A stretch of 31,265 bases of DNA, taken from positions 1 through 31,265 of the forward strand of contig CAYHIM010000001.1 in NCBI GenBank assembly GCA_964356665.1, in the 5' to 3' direction. Shown here one piece after another: positions 8,579-21,769 of this stretch (positions within the stretch are counted from its first letter, which is position 1; each line of letters opens with the position of its first letter). The DNA is from an uncultured Gammaproteobacteria bacterium. GTDB lineage: Bacteria > Patescibacteriota > Patescibacteriia > Patescibacteriales > XYC2-FULL-47-12. A program made the position numbers and the translations under genes. The notes below the pieces were generated by a model. It was not told where the DNA came from. It was given only the letters and a program-made list of their open reading frames with translations, and made no database searches.

Positions 8579-8842
8579 ATGCATTTTATTATCGGTCTAA
8601 TCGGCATGGCGGTCGGCGCGCTGATGGTTATTTACTCGGAAAAAATCTACAACGCTTTCGGCCCCATTCCTTGGTTTGAAAAATATCTCGGCACCGAGGG
8701 CGGCTCTCGCTTGGGCTACAAACTCATCGGCATACTGGCATTTTTTATCTTTATGCTGGTTTTCTTGAATTTGCACCAAAGTTTTATTATGTGGATTTTA
8801 AGCCCGATCATTAGGCCGATACAGAAAACAATTATCAATTAG
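8579..8842 (+). CDS. Small two-TM membrane protein, unknown function
   Basis: 87 aa with two hydrophobic segments; starts 4 nt after the M23 stop. Confidence 0.75.
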   Translation: MHFIIGLIGMAVGALMVIYSEKIYNAFGPIPWFEKYLGTEGGSRLGYKLIGILAFFIFMLVFLNLHQSFIMWILSPIIRPIQKTIIN

Positions 8843-8843
8843 C

Positions 8844-8875
8844 AATTACGAATAATTGATAATTCGTAATTTTTA
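8844..8875 (+). terminator. 10-bp inverted repeat plus T-run
   Basis: AATTACGAAT (8844-8853) / ATTCGTAATT (8862-8871), then TTT. Confidence 0.4.
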
Positions 8876-8891
8876 ATTTGTAATTGATTTT

Positions 8892-19256: not shown

Positions 19257-19292
19257 AAATAAGTATATTTAGTAAATAAAACCGATTCGCTT

Positions 19293-20534
19293 TTACACGA
19301 ACCACATTAAAATAATAATGCCGACTGCTACGGCGGCAACGCCTAACCAAAGCTTCCAAGTTTTGGCGGCGTCTGCTTGCCAAGCGGCTATCCGGCTAAG
19401 CGCGTAGTGGTTGCCGACAAAGGCTAATAATACTATCAGCGGCAACACAAACATTACATTATAGAGCAAAAGATAACCGAAGCCCTGCCAAAAATTATTC
19501 CGAGAAGCAAGCAAGCCGATAATCGCGACATAAATTCCGCCGGAACAGGGGAAAGTGCAAAGCCCGACTAAAAACGCGCCAACAATAACTGCCGACAACG
19601 TCCCTTTGGTCAGCCAGCGCTGCAACGCTCCTTGAGAAAAATGCGGTATTTGTAATTTTATAGGAAACCGCGGCAGGTAATAACCGATAATATTTATTCC
19701 GCCCAAAACAATAATCAGCCAAGCGCCGATTTTAGCCATTAGATGCGGCTCATTAGATAAGACGATCGCTTTAAATAATCCTAAGCCAATGCCTAAATAC
19801 GTCAGATAGATAATACCGATGTAGAGACTGCCGTAAAGCGCGATTAACTTTAAACTGCCTTTGAACGTAAACAGAAAAGCGATAAAAAACAACAGTACCG
19901 CAAAGGCGCAAGGATTAATGCCGTCAAGCAGTCCGGTGGAAAGTACCAGCGGCAATAAGGAGCGTTGTTTGTTTTGGCTCGGAAATAATTCCTGCTTCTG
20001 CCAAGAATTAAGATAGGTTGTTAATGGTTCGTCTAAACCATACATTTGCGCGGCCATACCGGGCTGCCAGACCGCATATTTAACATCTTTAATTTGAATG
20101 CCCGACATTCCTAACATCTGGTCTTGGAAAATCAGCATCGGCTGCGGCAGCTGCTTAGTTGCTATCGCCTCGCGCACTCGCGCCAAAGGCACATGCCCGC
20201 CAATAATAACTCTGCCGTCATCAAGAAAGGTCATAATATGACTCTGTAATTCATAGGGGATGTTAAATTTATCCTGCAAAGAATTCAGGTCTCTTCTCAC
20301 CTGCCGGTCGTTTAAATAATCAAATAACTTAACCGTCATTCCTTGCCCTTGTAAGTAAGGCACGAGCTCTTGGGTCAAATACTGATTGCAATCGCCGCAC
20401 GCTTCGTTGTAATAGATATCTGCCGTTTGATAACGTTCCTCCGGCTCCGCCGCCCAAACAAAATGCCAGCTAACTAACAGCAAACCGGCTATCAAGCCGT
20501 TTCTTAGATATTTTTTTAGCTTAAATTTTTTCAT
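19293..20534 (-). CDS. Thioredoxin-like domain plus CcdA/DsbD-type membrane thiol-redox protein
   Basis: Signal peptide, CGDC motif, and TM domain with GLLDGINPCAF and CTFPCSGGIY. Confidence 0.85.
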   Translation of the reverse strand: MKKFKLKKYLRNGLIAGLLLVSWHFVWAAEPEERYQTADIYYNEACGDCNQYLTQELVPYLQGQGMTVKLFDYLNDRQVRRDLNSLQDKFNIPYELQSHIMTFLDDGRVIIGGHVPLARVREAIATKQLPQPMLIFQDQMLGMSGIQIKDVKYAVWQPGMAAQMYGLDEPLTTYLNSWQKQELFPSQNKQRSLLPLVLSTGLLDGINPCAFAVLLFFIAFLFTFKGSLKLIALYGSLYIGIIYLTYLGIGLGLFKAIVLSNEPHLMAKIGAWLIIVLGGINIIGYYLPRFPIKLQIPHFSQGALQRWLTKGTLSAVIVGAFLVGLCTFPCSGGIYVAIIGLLASRNNFWQGFGYLLLYNVMFVLPLIVLLAFVGNHYALSRIAAWQADAAKTWKLWLGVAAVAVGIIILMWFV

Positions 20535-21063: not shown

Positions 21064-21156
21064 AAAATAAAAAACACTTTGCTTAACTAAGCAAACCTTG
21101 CTCTCCCTAATGTCCAAATTAAGGAAAGCGATTAATTGCTTAGCCGAGCAAAGTGT
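21064..21156 (-). terminator. Long hairpin plus U-tract overlapping the end of the 134-aa ORF (putative attenuator 2)
   Basis: Outer stem 21156-21136 / 21094-21074 (20/21 paired, 2 G-U). Inner stem 21129-21118 / 21111-21100 (12/12, 2 G-U). Followed by UUUUUAUUUU. Confidence 0.8.
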
Positions 21157-21536
21157 CGGCGGTATATTTTAGGCAAACTTTCAAGCAAAACATCGTGCGG
21201 ATGCAGGCGGCGGTAATAGCTATTAACCCCTTGTTCGCCTAAACGGATGGTGGTAAATAAAAACAGATTAATAGTGTCGTCTGCAACTTGCCGCCATCTG
21301 AACCAAATCAGCGCTAATAAAATTGCCACTATACCGCTTACTAAAAAGTTGGCTACTACCTTAGTCATCGTAGTAATATGCGTCAAAGCAGATAAAGCTT
21401 CGTTACCGCACTCCAAACCGACAGAACACCCTAAATGAATGCTCTGCTGGCTGCAGCTGCTCCAAGCCAAAGGAATCGCCACTAAAGCGAGGATGATACT
21501 AATCGCTATCACTATTTGTAACCGGTGCGGCAACAT
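21132..21536 (-). CDS. Two-TM Cys/His protein with a PKIY motif near the C-terminus (putative leader ORF 2)
   Basis: Hydrophobic N-terminus, C28/H34/C37/C43/H53, second TM, YYRR and PKIY (aa 122-125). Confidence 0.7.
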   Translation of the reverse strand: MLPHRLQIVIAISIILALVAIPLAWSSCSQQSIHLGCSVGLECGNEALSALTHITTMTKVVANFLVSGIVAILLALIWFRWRQVADDTINLFLFTTIRLGEQGVNSYYRRLHPHDVLLESLPKIYRRHFARLSN

Positions 21537-21547
21537 AAATAATACTC

Positions 21548-21769
21548 TTAACTTTTAAGCGTTTTTTTAATTTCTGCTAATTCTTTTTTGCTAATTTCGC
21601 CTCGGGCATACCGTTCGTGAGCAATATCCAGCGCCGAATCCTTATTGGTGCGGCCACTGACTAAACGCGCTAACCAAACAATAATTAATATAACCAAAAC
21701 CCAGCTAATAATCATCGTCAGCCACCCGAAACCCATCCCGCCCGGGTAGCCGTAAAAATATCCCATCAT
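21548..21769 (-). CDS. SHOCT-domain small membrane protein
   Basis: MMGYFYGYPGGMGFGW, TM, ALDIAHERYARGEISKKE. GGAGG precedes ATG 21769/21766. Confidence 0.85.
   Translation of the reverse strand: MMGYFYGYPGGMGFGWLTMIISWVLVILIIVWLARLVSGRTNKDSALDIAHERYARGEISKKELAEIKKTLKS

Follow-up and report, generated by a model that had tools for sequence, protein, structure and literature searches.

A hairpin overlapping the end of a membrane protein gene as a possible translation-gated terminator between two copper modules of a Candidatus Falkowbacteria genome

The window analyzed in this study is a DNA stretch of 31,265 nucleotides (nt), one contig of a 920 kb, 92% complete genome from Candidatus Falkowbacteria, a groundwater lineage of the candidate phyla radiation (CPR). 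On its minus strand, two copper modules lie in succession: an upstream module of HMA-DsbD-cupredoxin, CopZ, CopA, and SHOCT genes and an open reading frame (ORF) of 134 amino acids (ORF134), and a downstream module of a DUF1573 gene and a gene for a 413-amino-acid (aa) DsbD-like protein. An RNA hairpin, referred to here as hairpin 2, was found at the joint of the two, where it takes in the stop codon of ORF134 and the seven codons before it. The structure, geometry, and conservation of hairpin 2 are established, and selection on it at the RNA level is supported. Our favored reading, to which a rough probability of 0.45 is assigned, is that hairpin 2 is an intrinsic terminator whose efficiency would be set by ribosome occupancy of the end of ORF134.

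Structure and stability of hairpin 2

The minus strand is the coding strand of every gene around hairpin 2, and RNA of this strand folds from position 21156 to 21074 as three stacked helices, H1 to H3, with an outer stem of 9 plus 10 base pairs (bp) and an inner stem of 12 bp (Table 1). The outer stem contains two G-U pairs and a single C x A mismatch between its 9-bp and 10-bp parts. A previous sequence-only reading of the region had built this stem from the H-F-A-R-L-S-N codons with the same two wobbles and one mismatch, and had placed the stop codon in the internal loop; folding bore out both, and the inner stem, its loop, and the U-rich tail that it described were all present. Besides the three helices, positions 21172-21165 (CUAAAAUA) can pair with positions 21069-21062 of the tail (UAUUUUAG), which adds eight base pairs and was observed in the minimum free energy (MFE) structures of all six natural variants described below. 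The hairpin comprises a total of 31-33 pairs over an 81-nt span, and its stem base is a mixture of A/U and G/C.

Hairpin 2 is real, and its fold lies beyond chance: the MFE was -47.5 kcal/mol versus -24.4 +/- 3.2 kcal/mol for 200 dinucleotide shuffles (z -7.2), none of which was as stable. RNA of the plus strand reached only -39.9 kcal/mol, because the G-U pairs of the sense strand turn into C-A mismatches. H3 alone accounted for -15.3 kcal/mol, and the 3' arm alone folded weakly (-5.9 kcal/mol). The 3' arm also carries a perfect 7-2-7 palindrome of 16 bp, TTGCTTAGTTAAGCAA (21079-21094), which is unchanged in all six variants and can form a weak local hairpin. A degenerate direct copy of the palindrome is in the 5' arm.

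Within the genome, hairpin 2 ranked third in stability among the hairpin-plus-T-tract structures at the 3' ends of about 800 crude gene calls in a survey that folded 100-nt windows and over-called long spurious stems. This survey was replaced by explicit stem scans on account of the spurious stems, and these identified about 20 stems in the genome that adjoin a T tract and have 19 or more basal pairs, including hairpin 2. The majority of the other wide-span stems were TTTGGAATAATTTGGA palindromic repeats, which may be a MITE-like (miniature inverted-repeat transposable element) or REP-like (repetitive extragenic palindrome) element of this genome. Long repeats of this kind, each followed by a T tract, were located at C15:5422-5536, C115:564-676, C24:7458-7545, C62:418-501, and C52:4657-4770 (contig:positions). 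A repeat or MITE identity was rejected for hairpin 2, which is single-copy in the genome and unrelated to these repeats. In Rfam, no family matched hairpin 2 at gathering scores, and at E<=1 just meaningless matches to microRNAs and long non-coding RNAs were returned.

Conservation and selection at the RNA level

Orthologs of hairpin 2 and ORF134 were found in one Candidatus Falkowbacteria genus only, in searches of 61 relatives, of 5.8 billion proteins, and of JGI metagenomes and GTDB genomes. Six natural variants were available, including three assembled ones (G000, G001, and G002) and three recovered from contigs of four other groundwater runs. All six share the three-helix fold, with energies from -39 to -47.5 kcal/mol, and their internal loops sit at fixed, conserved places. 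The U tail is kept in every variant and is one U shorter in G001 and G002. The 3' arm is identical in five variants, from which the sixth (X7) differs only at base pair 2.

Apart from the exceptions given below, the substitutions observed in the helices (C-G to U-G, A-U to G-U, G-C to G-U, U-G to C-G, U-G to U-A, and U-A to U-G, the last four types all occurring in H3) keep the pairing only in the sense-strand RNA. Between G000 and G001, for example, five of the five substitutions at paired positions stay paired via wobble, with a rough p of about 0.01 if 60% transitions are assumed. Additionally, the last 13 codons of ORF134 had 1.0 synonymous difference per 9.5 sites (0.11) versus 46 per 83.8 (0.55) in the remainder of the gene. 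This is an approximately five-fold suppression, from which a constraint on the gene's tail at the RNA level follows. Substitutions that did occur in these codons alter amino acids (A/V, R/V, and N/S).

Selection on hairpin 2 at the RNA level is thus supported by the fold kept in six variants, the wobble-type changes, and the low synonymous divergence. The sequence-only reading had proposed selection on the mRNA structure from a count of eight G-U pairs versus two C-A mismatches over hairpin 2 and a second hairpin of the cluster, hairpin 1; this tally is correct, and the strand test based on it is marginal (binomial about 0.055).

ORF134 and the PKIY protein family

ORF134 comes fifth in its module and is not the first gene of its operon. 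It encodes two transmembrane (TM) segments, a Cys/His loop (C28, C37, C43, and H53; C-x8-C-x5-C-x9-H), and a tail that reads ...LHPHDVLLESLPKIYRRHFARLSN, with the form ...RLGEQGVNSYYRRLHPHDVL.E.LPKIYRRHF..LS(N/S) conserved among congeners. Its C-terminus, LPKIYRRHFARLSN, contains one Pro. The protein is present in all congeners at 63-66% identity and is under purifying selection, with a ratio of nonsynonymous to synonymous substitution rates (dN/dS) of 0.27. The term leader, which the sequence-only reading had applied to ORF134, is therefore inappropriate for this conserved 134-aa membrane protein. No match to ORF134 was found in Pfam or NCBIfam, and none appeared in Pfam even at E<=5.

The PKIY motif near the end of ORF134 is followed by nine residues, the codons of which form the hairpin 2 stem. 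The same four residues characterize an unnamed, large family of CPR proteins that includes ORF132 of the same cluster. This PKIY family consists of at least 1375 representative clusters at 50% identity, with lengths of about 125-150 aa, and it was detected in 16 of the 401 genomes sampled from the phylum; no Pfam or NCBIfam model exists for it. Its members share the consensus C-x-F-x(about 11)-C-x-M-x(about 11)-H-I-x-x-W-Q, followed by a second TM segment and FSxGILxPKIY at the extreme C-terminus (as in ...GILHPKIY). The Cys, Cys, Met, and His residues are invariant in what is predicted to be the first extracytoplasmic loop, and genes of the family usually adjoin DsbA-like, HMA-DsbD, or DUF1573 genes.

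The match of ORF134 to the family profile was weak and confined to the N-terminal half (E about 1e-3 in a four-sequence search; hhalign probability 22%), and a BLASTP comparison of ORF134 with ORF132 returned no match. The spacings in ORF134 are compatible with the family, with 16 residues from Cys to His and 69 from His to Pro (64-78 in the family), and ORF134 reads LPKIY. ORF134 looks like a divergent relative (paralog) of the PKIY family whose reading frame runs into the hairpin.

Hairpin 1 and other hairpins at stop codons

Hairpin 1 is composed of a 25-position outer stem, an inner stem, and a UUUUGUAUUU tail. It begins in the Tyr codon of ORF132, just ahead of the HMA-DsbD-cupredoxin, CopZ, and CopA genes. 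Similar to hairpin 2, it is on the same strand of the same cluster and forms a long two-part stem from the last codons of a gene, with the stop codon inside, a U-rich tail, and G-U pairs confined to the sense strand. The two hairpins share no sequence similarity outside the PKIY codons, and they start at different distances before the end of the stop codon, 7 nt for hairpin 1 and 24 nt for hairpin 2. Unlike hairpin 2, which is known from one genus, hairpin 1 demonstrated true compensatory changes, as three of its base pairs had two-sided changes across four genera. This type of structure is therefore under selection.

The ordinary terminators of the genome are typically short and start at a median of 24.5 nt after the stop codon. 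Those that start before the end of the stop codon numbered 19 of 146, and three of the 19 were within this copper cluster. PKIY genes at two further loci, L024 and L030, are also followed by long stems whose start coincides with or precedes the stop codon, and the next gene at L024 encodes DUF1573. A PKIY-type ORF, a long hairpin, and DUF1573 occur in succession in genome G227. Elsewhere in the family, ordinary short terminators were located 11-34 nt after the stop codon in about half or more of the members sampled.

Besides hairpins 1 and 2, the third stop-overlapping terminator of the cluster is a small terminator-like hairpin on the minus strand at 19283-19304. It pairs GGUUCG with CGAAUC, is followed by UUUUAUUU, and encloses in its loop the codon at which the 413-aa DsbD-like gene stops.

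A proposed translation-gated terminator between the two modules

From the geometry of hairpin 2 and the folds of its parts, we infer termination, read-through, and gating by the ribosome. The nascent RNA would fold into the three stacked helices ending at U6AU4, RNA polymerase would be released, and the hairpin may also shield the 3' end of the upstream mRNA. Because the hairpin includes the end of ORF134, from the seventh-last codon through the stop, a ribosome completing this ORF or terminating on it would occupy the 5' arm and the beginning of the inner stem. Only weak structure was left in constrained folds when a ribosome footprint over the stop codon was blocked. Since the 3' arm alone is weak, termination would be expected chiefly when no ribosome is at the end of ORF134, and a polymerase closely trailed by a ribosome would read through into DUF1573. 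A leaky terminator gated in this manner would set the output of the downstream module relative to the pump.

Several features of the genome are consistent with this reading. A Rho RNA-binding domain was not detected in the genome, which is 92% complete, and intrinsic termination is therefore the expected mode. A consensus scan found no sigma-70-like site in the 32 nt that separate the DUF1573 ATG from the stem, although AT-rich promoters are hard to exclude by such a scan; expression of DUF1573 and the 413-aa gene therefore probably needs read-through. In a sister genus (G003), the DUF1573 module is separate (locus L049, G003:C34, 884-2310) and is placed behind a CsoR-family repressor gene, csoR (PF02583, E 4e-20), and an ORF for a Cys/His membrane protein of 96 aa, and no hairpin was found at this module. 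Hairpin 2 therefore marks a true module boundary, and the downstream module may have a promoter of its own. DUF1573 is duplicated at the same locus of G003, in a 273-aa two-domain protein.

Precedent is provided by terminators of the lambda tR2 type at or over stop codons in E. coli, where a terminator 5 bp from the stop was less than 10% efficient versus about 90% at 28 bp, and uncoupling translation restored termination (PMC4824070). These share with hairpin 2 a stable hairpin with a direct U tract, and a stem that a terminating ribosome occludes. In contrast, hairpin 2 contains three helices, 31-33 pairs, and seven sense codons plus the stop codon, its U tract is 57 nt from the stop, and it would act in a CPR host where Rho was not found. 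A dependence of terminator folding on the ribosome position along an upstream ORF would also be shared with the trp, his, and pyrBI attenuators. Their leaders, however, are 14-44 aa long with regulatory codons and, except for pyrBI, antiterminators, whereas ORF134 is a 134-aa conserved membrane protein with no alternative helix. In constrained folds for an antiterminator, only a non-conserved 5-bp local helix was obtained. Of the attenuator-like element proposed in the sequence-only reading, the hairpin, the stop codon in its loop, and the selection on RNA were thus retained, while the leader peptide was not. Masking of the DUF1573 start region was also considered and was rejected, as it appeared in the MFE structure of this genome and was absent in G001 and G002.

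A number of observations weigh against a translation-gated terminator. Typical terminators have stems of 5-14 bp, far shorter than the 31-33 bp and 81-nt span found here, the base of the stem is not G+C-rich, and a simple terminator scan did not list hairpin 2. As the stop codon is 57 nt upstream of the U tract, the ribosome would have to linger while the polymerase proceeds, and gating would work only if transcription and translation are coupled in CPR bacteria. An AT-rich promoter would hardly be excluded by a consensus scan. All variants come from one genus; among them, the junction of H1 and H2 opens to a 3x3 or 4x4 loop in other lineages, and X7 carries an A-C mismatch at base pair 2. No two-sided compensatory change was found in hairpin 2 among the six variants, and covariation proper is not established for this reason. 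The sequence-only reading had looked to orthologous loci for such changes and had taken a lack of conservation as grounds for dismissing the element; the element is conserved.

Copper sensing and other explanations

Two DUF2946 proteins are known to sense copper as nascent exported chains, CruR and CutF (PMC9426467; PMC9973294; bioRxiv 10.1101/2025.02.05.636593). In CruR (Bp2923) of Bordetella pertussis, relief of arrest at the C-terminal RAPP leads to Rho-dependent termination (PMC9426467). In Rhodobacter capsulatus (cutFOG), copper makes the ribosome stall at the Pro-rich C-terminus of CutF, which melts a stem-loop that masks a ribosome-binding site (RBS) (PMC9973294; bioRxiv 10.1101/2025.02.05.636593). 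ORF134 resembles CruR in that both are small proteins, exported or in the membrane, that have Cys ligands and a conserved C-terminal motif and are encoded upstream of copper-homeostasis genes, and termination just past the cruR gene decides downstream expression, in parallel to the role proposed for hairpin 2. CruR differs in its CXXC and RAPP motifs, its dependence on Rho, and its position at the head of an operon, while ORF134 has no DUF2946, CXXC, or RAPP, is the fifth gene, and is followed by an intrinsic-type hairpin. With CutF, ORF134 shares the general plan of a nascent exported copper-binding protein with a motif at its C-terminus, whose gene is directly followed by an mRNA stem-loop that a stalled ribosome would melt. 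Unlike the stem-loop of cutF, hairpin 2 ends 32 nt before the next ATG, does not conserve a shielding of the start region, and has a terminator-type U tract.

By analogy with both precedents, ORF134 could be a copper-sensing nascent-chain attenuator, in which its periplasmic Cys/His loop would bind copper on the ribosome, and a pause induced by the C-terminal PKIY region would leave the ribosome above the stem base. Formation of the intrinsic terminator would then depend on copper. This appears unlikely. In its favor are the size of the ORF132 family, with its invariant Cys, Cys, and His residues and C-terminal FSxGILxPKIY, the layout and compatible spacings that ORF134 shares with it, and the geometry, as a ribosome with Tyr in the P site reaches the first bases of the stem. 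Among named families, DUF2946 came closest in language-model features (0.82-0.84); this is a lead only, and ORF134 has no DUF2946 match. Regulators of the CsoR or MerR type were not found in the 92% complete genome, which leaves room for a copper-sensor mechanism. In contrast, ORF134 has no CXXC/CxxxC motif and neither RAPP nor poly-Pro, PKIY is not among the known arrest sequences, and the spacing from His to Pro varies from 64 to 78 residues in the PKIY family, while that of CruR is reportedly held within 1-2. About half of the family terminators sampled start 11-34 nt past the stop codon, beyond the reach of a ribosome at PKIY. ORF134 itself does not head its operon, matches the family weakly, and continues for nine residues beyond PKIY, and a conserved Cys/His/Met loop would equally suit an ordinary copper-handling protein. 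The broader proposal, that ORF134 and the PKIY family are on-ribosome membrane copper sensors through which extracytoplasmic copper would gate intrinsic termination with neither Rho nor a DNA-binding regulator, is likewise unlikely.

Hairpin 2 could also be a plain constitutive terminator that fully ends the copA-SHOCT-ORF134 transcript, with DUF1573 and the genes after it expressed as a near-leaderless mRNA from an unrecognized promoter overlapping the 3' arm or U tract. The canonical hairpin and U tract, the ordinary terminators that follow most PKIY-family genes elsewhere, and the separate CsoR-headed DUF1573 operon of G003 all fit this account, and a candidate promoter (TTGCTT, 18-19 nt, TATTTT) is present in the 3' arm and tail, where TTGCTT is also the likely -35 element of a tRNA promoter in the window. 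In addition, G001 and G002 carry TAATAAT 9 nt before the ATG, and short leaders are plausible because most genes lack a Shine-Dalgarno sequence. For the same reason, a Shine-Dalgarno argument on a separate DUF1573 transcript was discarded as uninformative, as a Shine-Dalgarno-like 4-mer occurs at only about 15% of the crude gene starts of the genome. The account is nevertheless not a likely one: the consensus scan identified no promoter-like site, the spacer of the candidate is 19 nt here and the -10-like hexamers vary between lineages, just 32 nt separate the stem from the ATG, and a stop codon inside the stem predicts interference by the ribosome if transcription and translation are coupled. 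An element of RNA processing or stability is improbable, although the stem far exceeds the length required for termination. A duplex of about 31 bp would here be cut by RNase III or block 3' exonucleases, such that the two halves of the polycistronic RNA differ in lifetime. The genome encodes RNase III, the internal loops are conserved at fixed places, and H1 plus H2 (19 bp with one mismatch) and the 12-bp H3 past the internal loop approach the two helical turns of its substrates. However, this would leave the invariant U tract directly past the stem without a role, the 3x3 or 4x4 loops break the outer stem in most lineages and shorten the continuous duplex, and nothing specific indicates cleavage. 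Least of all is expected of a DNA-level operator or recombination palindrome, in which a dimeric regulator would bind TTGCTTAGTTAAGCAA and its degenerate copy in the 5' arm. The perfect 7-2-7 palindrome, with a roughly estimated chance of about 3e-4 per arm, is invariant in the six variants and about 50 bp upstream of the DUF1573 ATG, but the motif occurs at no other gene of the genome, its second copy decays in other lineages, and no regulator gene was found within the copper cluster. The bias to G-U pairs and the wobble-type substitutions also indicate RNA and not DNA, which makes this reading very improbable.

Implications

CPR bacteria (Patescibacteria) have tiny genomes with few recognizable regulators. 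If hairpin 2 is a ribosome-gated terminator, copper-defense genes could be tuned via RNA structure and translation alone, and the class of copper-responsive upstream ORFs represented by CruR and CutF would come to include intrinsic termination and another, new family of proteins. If the copper-sensor reading were true, it would add a third mechanistic type, with a new arrest sequence, beside the Rho-dependent CruR and the RBS-masking stem-loop of CutF. Even as a plain terminator, hairpin 2 would be a case of natural dual coding, where the constraint on seven codons comes from RNA pairing and not from the protein. In addition, it lies at the border of two copper modules, which related genera have as separate operons.

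Genomic context

The closest relatives of the genome are PFAT01000028.1 and MFFV01000023.1, and the sequencing runs that carry it are groundwater metagenomes, with no RNA run listed among them. The order of genes in the copper cluster is summarized in Table 1. The end of the SHOCT gene at 21548 agrees with the sequence-only reading, which had placed hairpin 2 about 400 nt after it.

Table 1. Coordinates of hairpin 2, its components, and the surrounding features of the copper cluster in the window.
Feature	Position	Strand	Details
DsbA-like protein	27607-26837	minus	
ORF132	26770-26372	minus	132 aa, PKIY type
Hairpin 1	26379-26302	minus	between ORF132 and the HMA-DsbD_2-cupredoxin gene
HMA-DsbD_2-cupredoxin protein	26266-24428	minus	
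CopZ-like HMA protein		minus	between the HMA-DsbD_2-cupredoxin and CopA genes
CopA P-type ATPase	24209-21807	minus	
SHOCT protein	21769-21548	minus	
ORF134	21536-21132	minus	134 aa
P-K-I-Y codons of ORF134	21173-21162	minus	CCU AAA AUA UAC; sequence invariant in the assembled variants
Hairpin 2	21156-21074	minus	between ORF134 and the DUF1573 gene
Hairpin 2, outer-stem 5' arm (H1 and H2)	21156/21155-21136	minus	CAC UUU GCU CGG CUA AGC AA, H-F-A-R-L-S-N codons
Hairpin 2, internal loop	21135-21130	minus	UUAAUC; contains the ORF134 stop UAA (21134-21132)
Hairpin 2, inner stem (H3)	21129-21118 with 21111-21100	minus	GCUUUCCUUAAU / AUUAGGGAGAGC; 12 bp, two G-U pairs, loop UUGGAC
Hairpin 2, outer-stem 3' arm	21094-21075/21074	minus	pairs with the 5' arm
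Hairpin 2, U-rich tail	21074-21062	minus	UUUUUUAUUUUAG (U6AU4); abuts the stem base
DUF1573 protein	21042-20545	minus	165 aa; ATG 32 nt past the hairpin 2 stem
413-aa DsbD-like membrane protein		minus	downstream of DUF1573, followed by more small Cys-rich proteins

The sole BlaI/CopY-like winged-helix match of the genome was a weak one (25 bits) to a 133-aa ORF on another contig (C33:4164-4319), far from the copper cluster. Elsewhere in the window, an AT-rich 32-nt inverted repeat was observed on the plus strand at 8825-8890, directly upstream of a tRNA gene, and it overlaps a good sigma-70-type promoter (TTGATA, 17 nt, TGTAAT).

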